Positions 20,951 through 28,864 of a stretch of 64,000 nt of DNA are shown here, piece by piece; position 1 is the stretch's first letter, and the number at the start of each line of letters is the position of its first letter. The notes under the pieces are model-generated. The model saw only the letters and a list, made by a program, of their open reading frames with translations, ran no database searches and was not told the DNA's origin. Both the position numbers and the translations under genes were made by a program. Origin of the DNA: Escherichia coli (lineage in GTDB: Bacteria > Pseudomonadota > Gammaproteobacteria > Enterobacterales > Enterobacteriaceae); the NCBI RefSeq assembly GCF_041248615.1, contig NZ_CP158426.1. One strand, written 5' to 3'.

Positions 20951-21301
20951 TTAAAGCCCCATCGCAACAGCCAGACAGACAGCTGCAACAATCAGTGCAC
21001 GGCGGATTAACGCAGCAGAAAAAACCAGGTGAAGGCCGGTCTGTACGGGCCAGCGCCCCTCAGCCATGAGGCGCTCGTCATGCTTCAGGTACTGCCCCGG
21101 ACGGGCCTTCGGGAAGAGTGAGCGGTCCAGCCAGTAGCCGAGCACGGCGGCGAGGGAGATGAGAGAGAGCTTGTACACCACCACCGGCAACTGCTGGGGC
21201 GAGACCAGCGCGATGATGAGGAGTAGCAGCACGGCCGCAACAAGCCATCCACGCAGGCGGGTTTTTTGTACGTCAGCGATAAGGGAAGTGAATGGTTTCA
21301 T
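20951..21301 (-). CDS. Putative holin (multi-TM small membrane protein)
   Basis: 116-aa ORF with hydrophobic segments, first gene of the leftward late operon, RBS ggaga upstream. Confidence 0.6.
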   Translation of the reverse strand: MKPFTSLIADVQKTRLRGWLVAAVLLLLIIALVSPQQLPVVVYKLSLISLAAVLGYWLDRSLFPKARPGQYLKHDERLMAEGRWPVQTGLHLVFSAALIRRALIVAAVCLAVAMGL

Positions 21302-21432
21302 GAAAATGTCTCCTTGTTGTGTGGAGACAGCATGGCAAAAGCGTGGCGCGGAGGATTTTAAAGCGCGTTAAGAGAGAGGCGTGTTCGGGGTATGCAGAAT
21401 ACACGCTGGATCACTCACAAAGGAGATACAGA

Positions 21433-21981
21433 ATGACAGTCACACCGAAGCCGACCATCACCGTCAGAGTGTCCGGGCCTGTGGGCAGCGGTAAAAGTTA
21501 CGTTCTGACGCGTATAAAAGAGATGGTGAAAAAGGAATTTGGAAAAAGCGTCATTGTCGATGCCGCAGTTGTGGACGACGAGCGTATCTGTCGGACGAAT
21601 GAGCTGCTTCAGGAGCAACTCATGAAGGTGTTACGCAAACTCACCGGTCAGACAACAAAATGTTTTTCAGCCCCGGAGTACGGGATACAGGAACACATCC
21701 CGGTGAACATGCCCCCCGTTAACCAGCCTCCCCGGTTCTTCGACGAATACATTCTGACACCGGAAAATAAAGCTGAGCATGAAGAGATCAAAGCGGCGTT
21801 GTTCCGGGAAATCAGGAAGATTGCTGAAATGCAGCTGGAGGGCGGGCTGGACAGAGTGATGGCGAGAGGAGAATGGGAATCGCTGTTTGAAAGAGTTTCC
21901 CCGGAATTGCTTCCCCTCGCACTGGCTATCGGGATTATGCAGACAGCGGATAAACCTCACTTACGTTCATTAAACACGTAA
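21433..21981 (+). CDS. Small P-loop NTPase-like protein of unknown function
   Basis: ATG at 21433 preceded by aaaggag; Walker A-like GPVGSGKS near N-terminus and possible Walker B VIVDAAVVDDE. Confidence 0.6.
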   Translation: MTVTPKPTITVRVSGPVGSGKSYVLTRIKEMVKKEFGKSVIVDAAVVDDERICRTNELLQEQLMKVLRKLTGQTTKCFSAPEYGIQEHIPVNMPPVNQPPRFFDEYILTPENKAEHEEIKAALFREIRKIAEMQLEGGLDRVMARGEWESLFERVSPELLPLALAIGIMQTADKPHLRSLNT

Positions 21982-22361
21982 CGCATAATCCGGGATACGC
22001 ATTCAGCGATGACTGCATTTTCACCGGTTTTTACTGCATCCAGAAGTGACTCTTTAAATGGTACGGGCCGGGGCTGCAGAAAGGTCGGCATGGCATTGAG
22101 CAGACAGAGCGTTTTTTCCGTGAGGACGACATCAGCCGCTCCCACAGCCAGCAACTGAGAGTAACGAATATAGCTGTTATCCCGAAGCCATATCAGCGTA
22201 TCAATAAAATACCGGCACTTTTTCTGATCGTGATCAACCTGGTCCGGGATATCGAAAAAACCAGAATAAATCAAAACCTGAGGAGCCGGATGCGTGTTCA
22301 GTAATCGGCAGAATATTTTGCCGGTGAGTACATAAAAATCATCATTTAAGGAGTGCATCAT
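21957..22361 (-). CDS. Hypothetical protein (134 aa)
   Basis: ORF in an otherwise uncovered gap, convergent with the P-loop gene; weak RBS. Confidence 0.4.
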   Translation of the reverse strand: MMHSLNDDFYVLTGKIFCRLLNTHPAPQVLIYSGFFDIPDQVDHDQKKCRYFIDTLIWLRDNSYIRYSQLLAVGAADVVLTEKTLCLLNAMPTFLQPRPVPFKESLLDAVKTGENAVIAECVSRIMRYVFNERK

Positions 22362-22575
22362 GAATCCCCGATTAACGTTAACAGAACATCAGCGCCGTGC
22401 CGAAGCAGTGAACAATGTTCTGGAAGATATTATCCGGTTACATCGCGGAGAACTGAGTGTCTGTCGTGCCACTGTTCATTTTCAGGAAATACAAAAGCAG
22501 TTTGATACTTCTGTTTTTGCAGAAGGGATCACTTATGCCCTGGACCAGATAAGGTCAGAAAATCGCCCCGGATAA
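22360..22575 (+). CDS. Hypothetical small protein (71 aa)
   Basis: ATG at 22360 preceded by aaggag at good spacing; upstream of the methyltransferase gene on the same strand. Confidence 0.5.
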   Translation: MNPRLTLTEHQRRAEAVNNVLEDIIRLHRGELSVCRATVHFQEIQKQFDTSVFAEGITYALDQIRSENRPG

Positions 22576-22767
22576 TCCCTAAACCACATTAACAGAAATC
22601 ACTTCATCCCTGCCGCATCATGAAAGAACGACCAGCCCGGTGCTTCGGACCCACCAGGCTGGCCATCGTCCCACAGGAATGCGCTGTGAGCCGACCGGGG
22701 TTCAGTCAGTCTCGCGAGACCAGACTAGCCTGCCATATTTTTAATAATTGTAAAAGGCTTACAGATT

Positions 22768-23532
22768 ATGAAAATGCAGACATTACCCATCGTTCCATGG
22801 ATTGGTGGCAAACGTCGCCTGGCAAAACACATCCTGCCGCTGTTTCCGGCGCATGAATGTTACGTGGAGCCGTTCTGCGGCGCAGCAGCGCTCTATTTTC
22901 TTAAGACACCTGGTAAGCTCGAAGTCATTAACGATATCAATGGTGAACTGGTAAATCTGTATCGGGTGGTAAAACATCATCTGGAAGAATTTGTCCGCCA
23001 GTTCAAATGGGCGCTGGTCAGCCGGCAGATCTACAAATGGCTGCAGATCACCCCGACAGAAACACTGACGGATATCCAGCGTGCAGCACGGTTCTACTAC
23101 CTCCAGAAGCAGGCGTTTGGCGGCAAGGTGGCAGAGCACAGCTTCGGCACCTCCACCACATCCCCGCCACGCTTCAACCTGCTGCGTATCGAGGAAGAAC
23201 TGTCAGCGGCACACCTGCGGCTTTCCAGAACGGTGATAGAACACATGGACTGGCAACAGTGCATTGAGCGCTATGACCGTCCGCACACGCTGTTCTACTG
23301 TGACCCGCCGTATCTGGGTACAGAAGGCTATGGTGTGGATTTTCCTGAAGGGAACTACTCGCGGCTGGCAGAGCTGGCCCGGTGCATCAGAGGAAAGATG
23401 ATAATTTCGGTGAACGACATCCCGCAGATGCGCGAGGTGTTCACTGGACTGAACATACAGACAGTGAACATCAACTACAGTCTGGCAGGCAAATCAACTC
23501 CACGCCGTGAGCTGGTGATCTGCAATTTCTAA
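22768..23532 (+). CDS. DNA adenine methyltransferase, Dam family (orphan, phage-borne)
   Basis: 254-aa ORF with DPPY catalytic motif (FYCDPPY) and Dam-like N-terminus (PIVPWIGGKRRL). Confidence 0.85.
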   Translation: MKMQTLPIVPWIGGKRRLAKHILPLFPAHECYVEPFCGAAALYFLKTPGKLEVINDINGELVNLYRVVKHHLEEFVRQFKWALVSRQIYKWLQITPTETLTDIQRAARFYYLQKQAFGGKVAEHSFGTSTTSPPRFNLLRIEEELSAAHLRLSRTVIEHMDWQQCIERYDRPHTLFYCDPPYLGTEGYGVDFPEGNYSRLAELARCIRGKMIISVNDIPQMREVFTGLNIQTVNINYSLAGKSTPRRELVICNF

Positions 23533-23540
23533 AAGCCATA

Positions 23541-23565
23541 ACCGGAAAGTACAGTGCTTTCCGGT
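23541..23565. terminator. Hairpin between the convergent methyltransferase and repressor genes
   Basis: accggaaag-tacagtg-ctttccggt inverted repeat; no strong U-tract, so a bidirectional stem rather than a classic intrinsic terminator. Confidence 0.4.
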
Positions 23566-23650
23566 AAGCCCGCCGATTTCTGCCATGCTACTGACGGCGT
23601 TTTCTGAAAGCATCCAGATCAACCACCTGTCCTTTCTGTCCAGGTCAGAA

Positions 23651-24043
23651 TCAGCCTGCGAGTTTGCCTGGTTTTGGCTGAGTGAAGACTTTGCCGACGT
23701 CAAGAAATGAACGTTGTTGTTCTCTTGTCATTTTATCAAACGCAGCCACCAATTCTTGCTGATCATGAGAAAGTGGTTTAGTAGGTGGCACACTATCTTC
23801 CGTAAGAAACCTTGAACCGACACCTGTTAATAGCCAATTAATGTTTATACCCAACTGTGTACAAAGTTTTGTTAACCCCACAATATTCGGCTCACGAGCT
23901 CCATTCAAATAGCTTTGCGCAGTACGGTATGGCAGCTCACACGCTTCCGCAAACTCTTTGATAGATTTGATTTTCTTTTCTGTCAAAACTTCCTTCAAAC
24001 GTTCAGCAATACACATTTGCATCTCTTTTATTGCTTTATACAC
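23651..24043 (-). CDS. Phage repressor, HTH XRE/CI-type (c-like)
   Basis: 130-aa ORF with N-terminal HTH (IKEFAEACELPYRTAQSYLNG), transcribed divergently from the early operon. Confidence 0.75.
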   Translation of the reverse strand: MYKAIKEMQMCIAERLKEVLTEKKIKSIKEFAEACELPYRTAQSYLNGAREPNIVGLTKLCTQLGININWLLTGVGSRFLTEDSVPPTKPLSHDQQELVAAFDKMTREQQRSFLDVGKVFTQPKPGKLAG

Positions 24044-24046
24044 ATT

Positions 24047-24064
24047 TGTGTATATAATCTATCA
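24047..24064. promoter_or_regulatory. Candidate operator palindrome in the repressor/early divergent promoter region
   Basis: Perfect inverted repeat TATACACA-TT-TGTGTATA; partial copy acacatttg at 24012-24020. Confidence 0.5.
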
Positions 24065-24104
24065 CATATAACGCAAACATCATTACACCAAAAAGGAGGC
24101 AACA

Positions 24105-24293
24105 ATGACTGCAGACCAGGTCAAAGCCCATTTCCGCCGCAATGGGATCACCTTTACCCAGTGGGCAAAACAGAACAACTACACCAGAGCGGAGGTGTAC
24201 CGCGTTCTGAATGGTCAGGTAAAAGCGAACTACGGCAAAGCCCATGAAATCGCCGTCAAGCTGGGATTAAAAACCATCACTGACGCCGCTTAA
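24105..24293 (+). CDS. Small DNA-binding protein, Cro/Ner-like early regulator
   Basis: 62-aa ORF with RBS aaaggagg; HTH-like segment FTQWAKQNNYTRAEVYRVLNG; first gene of the early operon. Confidence 0.6.
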   Translation: MTADQVKAHFRRNGITFTQWAKQNNYTRAEVYRVLNGQVKANYGKAHEIAVKLGLKTITDAA

Positions 24294-24340
24294 AAAGATA
24301 CAGCATACGAAAAAGATTATCACATATTGAAAAAAGAGGT

Positions 24341-24655
24341 GTGCAGATGAGTAAGACGAATGTTTCAAGCTCCGGCAGTCGCATCCTCCGGGTACTTAAA
24401 GCGCTGCGTGGGCATGCCCTGAACGGTATTTCCAATGGTGAACTGGCAGCAGCACTGCACGAGTCACCGGCGAACATCAACCGGGCACTCAACACCCTCA
24501 TTGAAGAAGGGCTGGCTCTGAAACTGGAGAACGGACGTTTCGCACCGGGCATCCAGTTATTACAGATCGCCATGGCACACACTAATGAGATGGCACGAGC
24601 ACAGGATCGTATTAACGAAATCAACCAACGTGTCATTTCAGGTAGTCGTTTATAA
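24341..24655 (+). CDS. Winged-helix DNA-binding protein
   Basis: 104-aa ORF; wHTH-like segment ISNGELAAALHESPANINRALNTLIEEGL. Confidence 0.5.
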   Translation: MQMSKTNVSSSGSRILRVLKALRGHALNGISNGELAAALHESPANINRALNTLIEEGLALKLENGRFAPGIQLLQIAMAHTNEMARAQDRINEINQRVISGSRL

Positions 24656-24665
24656 GGAGTAATCA

Positions 24666-25583
24666 ATGGGACGTACCAAATCACCGGTTAACACTGAACT
24701 GAGCGTCGAGGTACCGCTGTCGGATGATCTCAACGTCAGCCTGAATGCCATGACACAGCATCGCATGGAGATCATGCAGCAGTTTGGCGATGGTCAGCCC
24801 TATGAGCGCGATCGTATCGTGCATGAAGCTCGCTTTTATATGGCACAGAGCGCTGAGGCTATGCTGGAAGCGGGTAAGCGACTGATTATTCTAAAAGAAA
24901 ATGAACCGCATGGTGATTTCATAAATATCGTCGAGTCTGAATTATCAATGTCGAAGCGTACTGCACAGGTCATGATGCAGGCATCAATAAAATATTTATC
25001 ACCACAACTTGGGTCAAAAGCGCAGACGTTTGCGCTTTTAGGAAAAGCAAAACTATTTGAGTTAATGACGGAAGACGATGAAGACCTTGCCGAACTGGCC
25101 GACGGCGGTACGGTTGCCGGCCTGACGCTTGACGATGTTGATCGCATGTCAGTACGTGAACTTCGTCAGGCCCTGCGCGAAGCGCGCGAAACCAATGCAG
25201 CACAACAGCGTGTTCTAGCCGACAAAAATGAAAAAATCGACTCACTCTCCACCAGGCTGGAGAAAAAATCCCGTATTCAACCGCCTGAGCCTGATGAAGA
25301 GGTGAAGAAGCTGCGGGCGGAAGTGACCGCATTAGCGGTTGAGGCGGAATCTGCCATCGCCGTCCGGCTCTCCGGTGCCTTTGAAACCCTGTGTGAATAC
25401 TGCAGTAAAAACATGATTGATACCCCCAGAGATTTCATGGCCGGTCTGGTCTGCCAGATTGAACGCAGTGTTCATGCATTGCGTGAGACGTTCGACCTTG
25501 ATGCCGCACCATCGGGTAACGATGTCCCCGCATGGCTGACCGAACCGGAGCCTGAAATCAACCGACCGGAGGGCATGCGTTAA
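24666..25583 (+). CDS. Early-region protein (DUF3102-like) of unknown function
   Basis: 305-aa ORF between regulators and transposase, translationally coupled. Confidence 0.5.
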   Translation: MGRTKSPVNTELSVEVPLSDDLNVSLNAMTQHRMEIMQQFGDGQPYERDRIVHEARFYMAQSAEAMLEAGKRLIILKENEPHGDFINIVESELSMSKRTAQVMMQASIKYLSPQLGSKAQTFALLGKAKLFELMTEDDEDLAELADGGTVAGLTLDDVDRMSVRELRQALREARETNAAQQRVLADKNEKIDSLSTRLEKKSRIQPPEPDEEVKKLRAEVTALAVEAESAIAVRLSGAFETLCEYCSKNMIDTPRDFMAGLVCQIERSVHALRETFDLDAAPSGNDVPAWLTEPEPEINRPEGMR

Positions 25584-25900
25584 TGAACACGAATAATACA
25601 CAAAATATCCTGATGGACAGCCCGGAAGCACTGGGGCACGCACTGTGTAATCTGCTGCCGGAGATGGTGCAGGGTTTCCGCGTGGTGACACCTTCCGGTG
25701 AAATCTGCGTACCCGCACAGGAGGCGCATCCGTTTGTACTGACGATGGAAGTGATGCTGATGCAGCAGATAAGACGTCTGCAGCATCAGTCAGCATTGCG
25801 CCCGGCAGTTGCGCCGCAACCGGTAAATAACGTGGTGAAAACCTGCGATGGCGAAACACTGTACGACCTCGCCAGAAAAATTGCCGCCAGAATCGGATAA
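25583..25900 (+). CDS. Hypothetical early protein
   Basis: 105-aa ORF overlapping the previous stop by ATGA-type coupling. Confidence 0.45.
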   Translation: MNTNNTQNILMDSPEALGHALCNLLPEMVQGFRVVTPSGEICVPAQEAHPFVLTMEVMLMQQIRRLQHQSALRPAVAPQPVNNVVKTCDGETLYDLARKIAARIG

Positions 25901-25915
25901 CAGGGAAGACAAGCT

Positions 25916-27685
25916 ATGACCCCGGCACTGACTGAAAAACTTGTTGAAACAGCCCGCGCGGCACGTAATGCAGGGCATGGTAAACGCGGTGCAATATACG
26001 ACGCTGCCTGTGCTGAACTTGGCATGTCCCGCGCCACTCTGCTGCGCAGGCTGAAGGAGGTCTCTGTGACTGATAAACGCAAAAAACGCGCCGATGCCGG
26101 ACGCAGCACCCTGACCCGCGACGAAGCCGCGCTGATATCTGCCACACTACGTGAGGCCACCCGCAAGAACGGTAAGCGTCTCTATTCCATCGCGGATGCA
26201 GTGGAAACCCTGCGGGCTAACGGCTTTATCTCCGCAGGCAGAACAGATGAAACTACCGGTGAGTTTTTCCCGTTGTCCGAAGATGCCATCAGTCGTGCCC
26301 TGCGTAACTATGGCCTGCACCCGGAACAACTGGATGCCCCTGCACCGCATACCGAAGTGGCCAGTCTGCACCCCAATCATGTCTGGCAGATTGACGCCTC
26401 ACTCTGCACGCTTTACTACCTGAGCAATGGACATAAAGGGCTGCAGGTGATGGACAGCGCGAAATTCTACAAGAACAAGCCCGCTAACCTTGCCCGTATC
26501 GCCAGTGACCGCGTGTGGAGTTACGAGATTACCGACCATGCCAGCGGCTGGATTTACGTTGAGTATGTGACGGGTGCGGAATCCGGTGAGAACCTGTGTT
26601 CTGTGCTTATCAACGCCATGCAGGAGCGTGGCGGCGCAGACGTGCTGCACGGCGTGCCAAAAATACTCTATCTCGACCCCGGCTCGGCAAACACCGCGGG
26701 TATGACGAAAAACATGTGCCGCTCACTGGGCATCGACCTGATAGCGCACAAGCCGCATAACGCCCGCGCCACCGGACAGGTGGAAAAGGCGCGTGACATT
26801 ATCGAACGCAAGCTGGAGCCGGGTCTGAAGTTCCGGCCGGTTCACAGTCTGGAAGAACTCAACGCGCTGGCCGCGAAATGGCGCAGCCACTTTAACGCCA
26901 CGGCTGTTCACAGCCGCCACGGTAAAACCCGCACGGATATCTGGCTGAAGATTACTGCTGAGCAGCTGAAAAAAGCGCCTTCCGTTGAGGTATGTCGTGA
27001 ACTGGCTGTGGCGGGACCAGAACTCCGCAAAGTCACGCCAAAACTTCGTGTCTCGTTCCGGGGCACTGAATTTGACGTATCAACGGTACCGGGCGTACTG
27101 GTCGGTGAAAAACTGATGATTACCCGTAACCCGTGGCGCAGCGATGTGGCACAGGTGGTTCTGACCGGTGAGGACGGCCACGAGACGTTCTTCCTGGTCG
27201 AAGAGGTCAGAAAGAACGAGTTTGGCTTTGCTGAAGGCGCGGCGGTATTTGGCGAAAGTTACAAAGCCCTGCCGGAAACCCCGGCGCAGATGGCGGCAAA
27301 AGAAACCGAAGCGCTGGTCACCGGTACAGACAACGCCGCAGATGCAGCTGCCGCACGCAAGGCGAAGGCGCTGCCGTTCGGCGGGCGGCTTGACCCGTAT
27401 AAACATATTGATGACGCCACACTTCCGGCCTGTATACCGAAGCGTGGTCAGGCCTCTGACGTACGCGGACCGCGCACTGAACAGCGTCCCATGACTCATG
27501 TGGAGGCCGCGAAAGCCCTGCGCGGGAAGTTTAGCGCAAACGGCCTGACCTGGACGCCGGAACATTACCGCCAGTTAACAGCACAGTACCCGGACGGCGT
27601 ACCGGAAGCCGCACTGGATGAAGTCATGGCCACGCTGACCACGCCGGCCCGCAGCAGCGTTATCAGCATTGTTAACGGCAACTGA
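25916..27685 (+). CDS. DDE transposase A (Mu-like, rve/integrase-core type)
   Basis: 589-aa ORF; N-terminal HTH, catalytic core with candidate D (WQIDAS), D (LYLDPGSANT) and E (GQVEKARD) residues. Confidence 0.8.
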   Translation: MTPALTEKLVETARAARNAGHGKRGAIYDAACAELGMSRATLLRRLKEVSVTDKRKKRADAGRSTLTRDEAALISATLREATRKNGKRLYSIADAVETLRANGFISAGRTDETTGEFFPLSEDAISRALRNYGLHPEQLDAPAPHTEVASLHPNHVWQIDASLCTLYYLSNGHKGLQVMDSAKFYKNKPANLARIASDRVWSYEITDHASGWIYVEYVTGAESGENLCSVLINAMQERGGADVLHGVPKILYLDPGSANTAGMTKNMCRSLGIDLIAHKPHNARATGQVEKARDIIERKLEPGLKFRPVHSLEELNALAAKWRSHFNATAVHSRHGKTRTDIWLKITAEQLKKAPSVEVCRELAVAGPELRKVTPKLRVSFRGTEFDVSTVPGVLVGEKLMITRNPWRSDVAQVVLTGEDGHETFFLVEEVRKNEFGFAEGAAVFGESYKALPETPAQMAAKETEALVTGTDNAADAAAARKAKALPFGGRLDPYKHIDDATLPACIPKRGQASDVRGPRTEQRPMTHVEAAKALRGKFSANGLTWTPEHYRQLTAQYPDGVPEAALDEVMATLTTPARSSVISIVNGN

Positions 27686-27695
27686 GGAGGGAAAC

Positions 27696-28862
27696 ATGCT
27701 GGTACTGAAGCAGCAACTGAAAGAGGCCCGTATTCCACAGGCGGTGGCGGCGAGAGCTGTCGATGTTTCTGAGGCCACGCTGGCCCAGATTGTGAATCAT
27801 AACGCGTGGCCCCGCACCAGCCCCGGAGAAGTGCGCCGGCGTCTTGCGTCCTGGCTGGAAAGCCAGGGGATTGATACAACGAAGAGTTTTGATGCTGTAC
27901 AGGGCGCGGCCACGCCCCGTACAGCGGATACCACAGATAAAACGAGCCTCAGTGAGGAAGAGAATATGTTACTCAAAAAACAGGTGTTATTTCCAGCAAC
28001 CAAAAAAGCGTTTGGTCTTTTCCGTGACCCGTTCGCCGATGAAGCCATGCAGGGTTCTGATGATGTGTTCACCACCCCGGACATTCGCTACGTGCGTGAG
28101 GCGCTGTACCAGACAGCCCGTCATGGTGGGTTTATGGCCGTCATCGGTGAGTCCGGTGCGGGTAAATCCACGCTGCGCCGCGACCTGACTGAACGTATTA
28201 ACCGCGAGAATGCGCCGGTAATTGTTATCGAGCCATACATCATCGCTATGGAAGACAACGATGTGAAAGGGAAAACCCTGAAGGCAGCAGCTATTGCCGA
28301 AGCCATTATCAGTACCATCGCACCACTGGAAAGCATCAGACGCAGTCAGGACGCCCGCTTTCGCCAGTTGCATCGCGTCCTGAAAGACAGCAGCCAGGCG
28401 GGGTTCAGCCACGTTCTGGTGATTGAGGAGGCCCACAGTCTGCCCATTCCGACACTGAAACACCTCAAACGCTTTTTTGAGCTGGAGTCCGGTTTCAAAA
28501 AACTGCTGTCCATCGTGCTGATTGGCCAGCCGGAACTGGCGACAAAACTGTCTGAACGCAATATGGAAGTCCGTGAAGTCGTTCAGCGCTGTGAGGTGGT
28601 CGAACTTCTGCCTCTGGACAATAACCTTGAAGAATTTCTGACGTTCAAACTGCAACGGGCCGGTAAACAACTGACGGACATTATGGACGCCAGCGCAGTG
28701 GATGCCATACGTGCCCGCCTGAGCAATCCGGGAAGTCATCGTAAAAATATGGTCAGCCTGCTGTATCCGCTGGCCGTCAGTAACCTGGTAATAGCCGCCA
28801 TGAATCTGGCCGCTGAAATCGGGGTTCCACAGGTCAACGCTGACGTTGTCAAAGGAGTTTAA
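27696..28862 (+). CDS. Transposition protein B, AAA+ ATPase
   Basis: Start at ATG 27696 after aggaggg; Walker A GESGAGKST and Walker B VLVIEEAH; directly downstream of the transposase. Confidence 0.8.
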   Translation: MLVLKQQLKEARIPQAVAARAVDVSEATLAQIVNHNAWPRTSPGEVRRRLASWLESQGIDTTKSFDAVQGAATPRTADTTDKTSLSEEENMLLKKQVLFPATKKAFGLFRDPFADEAMQGSDDVFTTPDIRYVREALYQTARHGGFMAVIGESGAGKSTLRRDLTERINRENAPVIVIEPYIIAMEDNDVKGKTLKAAAIAEAIISTIAPLESIRRSQDARFRQLHRVLKDSSQAGFSHVLVIEEAHSLPIPTLKHLKRFFELESGFKKLLSIVLIGQPELATKLSERNMEVREVVQRCEVVELLPLDNNLEEFLTFKLQRAGKQLTDIMDASAVDAIRARLSNPGSHRKNMVSLLYPLAVSNLVIAAMNLAAEIGVPQVNADVVKGV

Positions 28863-28864
28863 TA

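Follow-up and report, generated by a model that had tools for sequence, protein, structure and literature searches.

The window analysed here is a stretch of 64,000 nucleotides (nt) of Escherichia coli DNA (NZ_CP158426.1), and the present work concerns the 2.3-kb interval in it that separates the holin gene of a Mu-like prophage from the repressor gene. The interval holds four genes, which encode a P-loop protein of 182 amino acids (aa), here called protein X, two proteins of 134 and 71 aa whose start codons lie back to back, and a Dam-family methyltransferase. According to our analysis, the interval is probably a recombinational mosaic of three units with separate histories, accommodated in a variable slot. 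Two of its parts are of particular interest, namely a mobile back-to-back gene pair found in prophage hotspots and a leader RNA upstream of the Dam gene that is absent from Rfam. The anatomy, modularity, coding status, fold, RNA covariation and distribution of the parts are shown by the data. An earlier, sequence-only reading had proposed that the four genes form one undescribed system; that proposal is not upheld, because the pair occurs without Dam or the P-loop gene, Dam and the P-loop module each occur without the pair, and the X of the window is internally deleted. The tempting "new four-gene defence system" is replaced by a testable dissection into separate units.

The four genes lie between holin and repressor with the features first claimed for them, and the RefSeq annotation of identical E. 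coli chromosomes by the Prokaryotic Genome Annotation Pipeline (PGAP) calls the same four. The open reading frames (ORFs) and the elements that belong to the three units are as follows.

21433-21981, plus strand: P-loop ORF encoding protein X (182 aa), with an AAGGAG ribosome-binding site upstream.
21957-22361, minus strand: 134-aa ORF, convergent with the P-loop ORF, the two 3' ends overlapping by 25 nt.
22359-22362: CATG junction, the palindrome shared by the two divergent start codons, which overlap by 2 nt.
22360-22575, plus strand: 71-aa ORF with a GGAG ribosome-binding site.
22621-22767, plus strand: conserved structured 5' leader of the Dam mRNA, supported by covariation.
22768-23532, plus strand: Dam-family methyltransferase of the D12 class, 254 aa, with DPPY at 23302-23313.
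23541-23565: terminator-like hairpin, seen in the sequence, between the convergent Dam and repressor genes.

To survey the slot, a 5.4-kb query consisting of the slot and its flanks was compared with 5,426 complete E. coli genomes. It matched 635 of them, 478 over at least 80% of the query, and the remaining carriers have at least three alternative cargo sets between the lysis genes and the repressor. Variant B encodes a 158-aa P-loop protein together with proteins of 193 and 328 aa, variant C a DUF2441 protein with proteins of 203 and 328 aa, and variant D a Dam with a 401-aa protein and a nucleoid-associated-like protein. In BcepMu the slot holds gp18-gp20 and no Dam, and in Klebsiella phage KP12 it holds a 188-aa gene and Dam. 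BcepMu, KP12 and the three E. coli variants all lack the genes for X and the pair, so the three unknown proteins are not core proteins present in every relative. In contrast, Dam is kept in most enterobacterial relatives. The slot had been described as accessory, which therefore stands for X and the pair, for which relatives carry other cargo, but not for Dam, a conserved gene of the lineage. In Serratia prophages the C-terminal module of X, the pair and Dam occur together, and the P-loop module is missing.

Several details of the alternative cargo deserve mention on their own. In variants B (L011, 2228-3886) and C (L012, 1937-4540) the 328-aa gene overlaps a 153-aa repressor gene by 4 nt. The cargo of variant D (L013, 2576-4791, from E. 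coli L4_E1441_ETEC) adjoins Dam; its 401-aa protein has a weakly KwaA-like C-terminus (PADLOC, 8e-5), and the next gene encodes a 335-aa protein annotated by PGAP as "nucleoid-associated protein". These two genes may be another uncharacterised two-gene module. PADLOC found nothing in the alternative slot cargo beyond this weak KwaA-like match, and nothing in variants B and C.

These distributions bear directly on the view that X, the 134-aa and 71-aa proteins and Dam constitute one undescribed defence or exclusion system, for example one in which methylation marks self and the P-loop protein is the effector. About 480 E. coli genomes have the four genes side by side, next to the repressor in a variable slot, and the three unknown proteins appear in no catalogue. 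However, the components occur separately in other phages, the P-loop module is entirely absent in Serratia and its copy in the window is internally deleted, Dam has a leader of its own and is far more conserved than its neighbours, and no nuclease or other effector domain was found. We consider a single four-gene system very improbable.

The methyltransferase had been read as a Dam-family enzyme (DPPY) with no adjacent restriction enzyme, and the profile searches agree. It scores 116.8 bits against TIGR00571 (cut-off 114.85) and matches the PADLOC model MTase_II PDLC03253 at 1.3e-112 over residues 4-253, as well as phrog_56. The catalytic motif CDPPYLG (residues 178-184) is invariant in four orthologues. 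The score is 67 bits against the equivalog model PRK10904, whose cut-off is 441, and only 55-65 bits against DpnM and E. coli Dam. The flanking genes, for the 71-aa protein and the convergent repressor, show no nuclease profile. Judged by these matches, the protein is an orphan, divergent N6-adenine methyltransferase of the D12 class. KP12 and the E. coli slot variant D have Dam but not the pair, and the aa identity of Dam among the window, variant D, KP12 and Serratia is 84-88% (84% between E. coli and Serratia). Relatives were found in at least 597 viral contig stretches, and many Mu-like contigs have the relative as their last gene. Because identity of 84-88% across genera is far above that of its neighbours, Dam is, on sequence grounds, a backbone gene of enterobacterial BcepMu-like and many other Mu-like phages, and not variable cargo.

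Strain JJ2434 of sequence type 131 (ST131) has this cluster too, X being there in its long form, and the ST131 strain EC958 has a Mu-like prophage at the corresponding chromosomal position. Forde et al. (PMC4659465) described M.EcoMIV, a D12 orphan methylase in prophage Phi2 of EC958, which is apparently the Dam studied here. Its transcription was far below that of host dam, no methylation motif could be assigned to it in the lysogen, and no recognition site is known for close relatives of Dam (PMC4659465). A literature search with the EC958 locus tags of the neighbouring genes gave nothing useful.

The gap of 192 bp upstream of Dam contains a conserved structured element of about 150 nt (22621-22767), which the sequence-only reading had missed. 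Nucleotide identity in this leader is 82-97% wherever Dam is at least 81% identical, whatever sits further upstream. Its elements, all on the plus strand, are as follows.

22632-22641 / 22653-22662: hairpin 1, from RNAalifold.
22705-22712 / 22717-22725: predicted hairpin with the palindrome GTCTCGCGAGAC.
22686-22692 / 22756-22762: helix of the anti-Shine-Dalgarno sequence GUGAGCC with GGCUUAC, which covers the ribosome-binding site of Dam.
22727-22730: AGCC, an alternative partner that can pair with the ribosome-binding site.

RNAalifold on 19 sequences gave 30 pairs, eight of them with compensatory changes, compared with 1.3 in shuffled alignments (none of 500 shuffles reached 8). A covariance model built from these 19 sequences was run on 51 more distant Mu-like loci, whose Dam is 65-74% identical, and found the leader at full length, on the sense strand and directly upstream of Dam in 35 of them (E 1e-16 to 5e-5). 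In a 47-sequence alignment, which is fitted to the model structure and whose counts lean towards that structure, 24 of the 30 pairs covary, the covariation score is 0.477 (at most 0.068 in slid controls), and 93% of cells are paired, compared with 75% in shuffles. The G-U pairs are frequent in this alignment, which favours the sense strand. An independent MAFFT/RNAalifold analysis of 20 diverse sequences recovered hairpin 1 and the 7-bp GUGAGCC:GGCUUAC helix, the latter with a UA-to-CG swap in eight of the 20. Rfam gave no match at E up to 1 (21000-24400) and only chance-level matches at E up to 10 (22590-22800). This covariation-supported RNA most likely gates translation of the Dam gene of a Mu-like phage. 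Since GAGCC can also pair locally and the second AGCC can pair with the ribosome-binding site, switching between alternative predicted structures is plausible.

Alternatively, the 150 nt upstream of Dam might act as DNA or on the opposite strand, for example as an activator-dependent late promoter with GTCTCGCGAGAC as a dyad operator, combined with a minus-strand terminator or short antisense RNA. A palindrome without interruption would be an apt site for a DNA-binding dimer, apparent covariation can also arise from symmetric changes in an operator, and the minus strand offers a promoter-like site at 22774-22747 and hairpin 1 followed by GGTCGTTCTTTC, which is flagged as terminator-like. However, if the other strand is read, many of the G-U and U-G pairs turn into A-C mismatches, and covariation extends to the long-range helix with the ribosome-binding region (a change from UA to CG in 8/20). 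In addition, the minus-strand -10 element is not kept in other lineages, and no second copy of the palindrome occurs at the other late operons of the window, where a search for a regulator site shared with the leader was likewise negative. A role as DNA or on the opposite strand is, in our opinion, rather unlikely.

In six distant Mu-like contigs (L126, L136, L138, L115, L107 and L113) the leader is found 150-1000 nt ahead of the point where the Dam match begins, and the gap may hold a small gene, perhaps for a Com-like factor. In the window, the ORF at 22620-22856 that runs over the leader was considered as a Com-like peptide and rejected, since stop codons interrupt it in several orthologous leaders.

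In the mechanism that we propose, leader RNA, Dam and terminator would make up the first unit. The upstream GUGAGCC would pair with the ribosome-binding region and leave Dam untranslated, some lytic-phase signal would open the leader, and the Dam then made would methylate replicating phage DNA ahead of packaging, so that the progeny would be shielded from restriction. By analogy, Dam would have the role and regulatory logic of mom/com of phage Mu, built from different parts; it probably acts like Mu mom in a tightly controlled, lytic-phase self-methylation. For this model we cite the apparent silence in the lysogen, namely the M.EcoMIV data (PMC4659465) and the presence of the cluster in ST131.

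The second unit would be a mobile cassette comprising the gene pair, for the winged-helix (134 aa) and three-helix (71 aa) proteins, and the C-terminal module of X. The head-to-head overlap of the two starts had been noticed before and is located at the CATG of 22359-22362. Homologues of the 134-aa protein with 30-33% identity occur in the P2-like phages Midge, FSL SP-004 and ST147-VIM1phi7.1, where an ORF of 63-64 aa starts back to back with the gene. The CATG junction with a divergent ORF of 63-86 aa is present at all 52 of the 52 IMG/VR loci recovered with the 134-aa protein, and also in Midge, ST147-VIM1phi7.1, Serratia and L015; a metagenomic homologue with 29% identity has the same CATG-sharing small ORF. 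The Shine-Dalgarno sequence of each gene sits within the first codons of its partner. The P2-like phages carry the pair without Dam or a P-loop gene, between gpA/DinI and the portal gene, where the neighbours vary and no third gene is constant. In ST147-VIM1phi7.1 the pair adjoins a reverse-transcriptase gene; the 90-aa neighbour in Midge shows by eye no likeness to the C-terminal module of X and is not a constant partner. Among the 5,426 complete E. coli genomes, about 94 have a P2-type and about 490 a BcepMu-type pair. The family of the 134-aa protein comprises 820 clusters at 50% identity, and its more distant members have no small partner. One such partnerless homologue, on a P2-like metagenomic contig (L014, 4001-4981), faces a genuine DUF2513 (PF10711) gene in convergent orientation within the same P2 hotspot, and two paralogous winged-helix genes therefore adjoin there.

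Between E. coli and Serratia, identity is 53% for the 134-aa protein and 28-31% for the 71-aa protein, the latter without frameshifts. For the 134-aa gene, the ratio of non-synonymous to synonymous differences per site (pN/pS) is about 0.05-0.2 among diverged homologues. Between Midge and ST147, pN is 0.03 and pS 0.39 for the large gene, and pN is 0.24 and pS 0.83 for the small one, whose non-synonymous change is two to three times faster. Both genes of the pair are under purifying selection, and the substitution patterns in diverged homologues gave no sign of positive selection on the small gene. The possibility that the 134-aa and 71-aa ORFs are spurious is ruled out by these patterns, because pN is well below pS between diverged homologues. 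Leaderless divergent transcripts starting at CATG were also considered and rejected; both genes have a Shine-Dalgarno sequence, and there is no -10-like element at -12 to -7.

The AlphaFold2 model of the 134-aa protein (predicted local distance difference test score, pLDDT, 92; predicted template modelling score, pTM, 0.86) shows a helical hairpin C-terminal to a winged-helix domain; in the latter, a loop takes the place of the usual second helix. Foldseek against AFDB50 found full-length matches to proteins named DUF2513 (E 1e-9 to 1e-8, TM 0.76-0.87), and there is a weak profile match to YjcQ (2hgc). The hidden Markov model (HMM) of PF10711 (DUF2513) matches neither this protein at E up to 10 nor 83 relatives, a fold search of the PDB gave generic winged-helix matches only, and nothing significant came from the viral structure library. 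A literature search on DUF2513 / PF10711 found nothing useful. The 71-aa protein belongs to phrog_4490, is hydrophilic and lacks invariant catalytic residues; it is predicted to be a three-helix bundle (residues 7-28, 34-47 and 50-67; pLDDT 75-87). Neither protein has a match in PADLOC-DB v2, and Pfam has no family for them or, apart from a weak Walker A match, for X. The claim that the P-loop and 134-aa proteins match nothing recognisable therefore stands as regards Pfam families and PADLOC defence models, but not as regards weak likeness in the Walker A region and the DUF2513-like fold. The pair does not resemble a type II toxin-antitoxin module, its genes being divergent and free of toxin or antitoxin profiles in Pfam, NCBIfam and PADLOC.

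Because the start codons share CATG, the promoter and leader of each gene must sit inside the other gene, and therefore the two mRNAs would overlap head-to-head across both ribosome-binding sites. Through transcriptional interference and antisense pairing, such an overlap should make their expression mutually antagonistic. Expression of the pair would be mutually exclusive and toggle-like, and the proteins may be a conserved nucleic-acid- or protein-binding component with a rapidly diverging partner. The pair would act in trans as a function that benefits the lysogen, such as exclusion or counter-defence, and would not regulate the genes around it.

The pair may have a role in defence or exclusion, and in the fullest form of this view it would be a self-contained anti-phage (superinfection exclusion) or counter-defence module, with the winged-helix protein as regulator or sensor and the fast-evolving small protein as specificity element or effector, in a logic comparable to that of anti-CRISPR genes and their conserved Aca regulators. 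Defence systems have been validated in the gpA-gpQ (tin/old) hotspot of P2-like phages by Rousset et al. 2022 (PMC9122126), and the pair lies in an accessory hotspot in each of two unrelated prophage families. It stays constant while its neighbours vary, reaches the 94 P2-type and about 490 BcepMu-type E. coli carriers counted above, adjoins a reverse-transcriptase gene in ST147-VIM1phi7.1, and has a small partner with two to three times faster non-synonymous divergence. However, the hotspot carries non-defence cargo too (PMC9122126), the pair has no PADLOC match, no enzymatic or membrane effector domain and no signal of positive selection, and the partner is missing from more distant family members. 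Pair sequences are also missing from the tables of Rousset et al. (PMC9122126), and the pair is not among the tested or validated systems listed there. Their "hp+hp+hp" (3HP) system was compared with the pair and rejected as an equivalent, its proteins being unrelated and much larger. We regard such a module as a tentative possibility.

The winged-helix fold, the divergent layout typical of switches, and the linkage to Dam in E. coli and Serratia would also agree with a local cis switch for Dam, the lysis operon or lysogeny, like P2 C/Cox or the controller proteins of restriction-modification systems. However, P2-like phages have the pair without Dam and without a constant neighbour, Dam and its leader persist without the pair, there is no intergenic operator region whatever, and helix 2 of the canonical winged helix-turn-helix (HTH) is a loop in the 134-aa protein. 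A cis switch is accordingly doubtful.

Protein X was correctly said to have a Walker A motif (GPVGSGKS; residues 15-22, nt 21475-21498). It consists of an N-terminal P-loop module fused to a C-terminal module of about 85 aa. The N-terminal module stands alone in slot variants including B (141-158 aa, named "ABC transporter ATPase"), and the C-terminal module stands alone in Serratia prophages (89 aa, 39% identity). Profile matches are weak and confined to the Walker A region (AAA_35, 5.7e-4; PADLOC SngB, 3.8e-4, and HerA, 2.2e-3), and outside that region profile searches found no known family. The X family was seen in E. coli only. Compared with PhiKM, the X of the window lacks two in-frame segments of 36 and 29 residues (65 in total), a deletion that the sequence-only reading did not report. 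The lost residues belong to the P-loop module of about 155 residues and include the TVIRLEE strand of the 242-247-aa form. In database clusters the 242-247-aa form sums to 1,190 member sequences and the 182-aa form to 59, and in the complete E. coli set only 14 genomes match the form of the window end to end. By this comparison, the X of the window is a minority, internally deleted (decayed) form, and it is probably inactive, being 65 residues short. The N-terminal P-loop module would constitute the third unit and belong to the holin-proximal flank.

The timing and anti-restriction role of Dam, the toggle behaviour and any function of the pair are what we infer from these data, and several points weigh against our reading. 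The equation of M.EcoMIV with Dam rests on position and annotation, not on sequence comparison. If Dam were specific for GATC, it would duplicate the activity of the host enzyme in E. coli. The 47-sequence leader counts lean towards the fitted structure, as stated above, and the leader palindrome could equally well be a protein-binding dyad. Promoter scans around the pair gave weak, non-conserved matches only, and an AlphaFold model of both pair proteins as a fused chain (pTM 0.58) speaks neither for nor against a complex. In addition, E. coli and Serratia alike have the C-terminal module of X, the pair and Dam as companions, so that pair and Dam may be functionally linked in this lineage. The joint proposal that the interval combines a CATG-toggle, two-gene exclusion or counter-defence cassette with a new cis-regulatory RNA class gating Dam, perhaps in response to a metabolite such as S-adenosylmethionine or S-adenosylhomocysteine (SAM, SAH) or to a phage late factor, is speculative, and the chances are clearly against it.

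E. coli chromosomes contain the interval with 100% identity, and PhiKM, an Escherichia phage classed in Bcepmuvirus, matches it at 93.8%. The interval is flanked on one side by a holin/SLT lysis operon and on the other by genes for an HTH repressor, a BcepMu gp16-family protein, a DDE transposase and an ExeA-like protein. From these flanking genes and the identity to PhiKM, the element is assigned to the BcepMu-like transposable prophages of E. coli. The flanking features are as follows.

20951-21301, minus strand: holin gene, from the sequence.
21302-21432: divergent control region between the holin and P-loop genes, largely kept in PhiKM.
23651-24043, minus strand: repressor gene, from the sequence.

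A 15-nt inverted repeat (21309-21323 / 21412-21426) covers both ribosome-binding sites of the control region, that of holin and that of the P-loop gene. Another inverted repeat, TGTCTCC-N9-GGAGACA (21307-21329), overlaps the holin ribosome-binding site (GGAGAC, minus strand) and is kept in PhiKM; it could form a hairpin on the holin mRNA and sequester that site. For the repressor, RefSeq uses a later start (339 nt, 23651-23989) than the 393-nt ORF cited earlier. A 24-mer direct repeat with 75% identity links the start of the 71-aa gene (22363-22386) with the sequence just past its stop (22574-22597), and the exact 10-mer GCATCATGAA occurs at 22355-22364 and at the start of the Dam leader (22615-22624). 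These repeats could be a recombination scar; for a 10-mer, one repetition within 2.4 kb roughly equals the chance expectation. The early region of the prophage (28001-32000) has one GATC site in 4 kb, compared with about 15 predicted by base composition, and the adjacent bin (24001-28000) has seven.

Compared with known systems, Dam shares with orphan phage Dam-family enzymes (Pfam MethyltransfD12, TIGR00571) the DPPY motif, the full-length D12 match and the lack of a partner endonuclease, and its low scores set it apart from DpnM and E. coli Dam. The 134-aa protein resembles the DUF2513 (PF10711)/YjcQ-like proteins in fold, matching AlphaFold models named DUF2513 over its whole length (TM about 0.8), whereas the Pfam HMM misses its family and a back-to-back small partner is undescribed for DUF2513. 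The P2-type homologue of the pair occupies exactly the gpA-gpQ (tin/old) hotspot, as the known cargo there does, but it is not a validated or listed tested system (PMC9122126). The pair is present in about one in ten complete E. coli genomes, including pandemic ST131, and moves between unrelated prophage families; with this spread and its unusual, strictly conserved architecture, it is a well-defined candidate for phage challenge. Overlapping or face-to-face divergent transcription units include P2 Pe/Pc, pR/pL of phage 186 and the "excludons". The transcripts of the pair must likewise overlap head-to-head, and mutual interference is therefore expected, but here the overlap is extreme: the start codons have 2 nt in common, and each ribosome-binding site is part of the partner's coding sequence. 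The D12-methyl RNA motif, reportedly described by Weinberg et al. in 2017 and held in Rfam, is said to be a structured RNA upstream of a D12-class methylase gene. The Dam leader is also a structured RNA upstream of such a gene, but no Rfam family, the D12-methyl motif included, matches it beyond chance level even at E up to 10, and its host range is proteobacterial Mu-like phages. In phage Mu, mom/com is a late DNA-modification gene under translational control. Unlike that system, the enzyme here is a D12-class methyltransferase forming N6-methyladenine and not Mom, the leader has no conserved Com-like ORF, and Dam lies mid-genome between lysis genes and repressor. Both systems have a DNA-modifying enzyme of a transposable phage that is apparently silent in the lysogen, an mRNA structure (predicted for Dam) that masks the gene start, and the terminal position that mom shares with the Dam relative in many Mu-like contigs. 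If the gating by the leader is true, it would explain the apparent silence of prophage-borne Dam homologues in methylome studies, and would provide a second example beside Mu mom/com of a DNA-modifying enzyme kept off until lytic growth.

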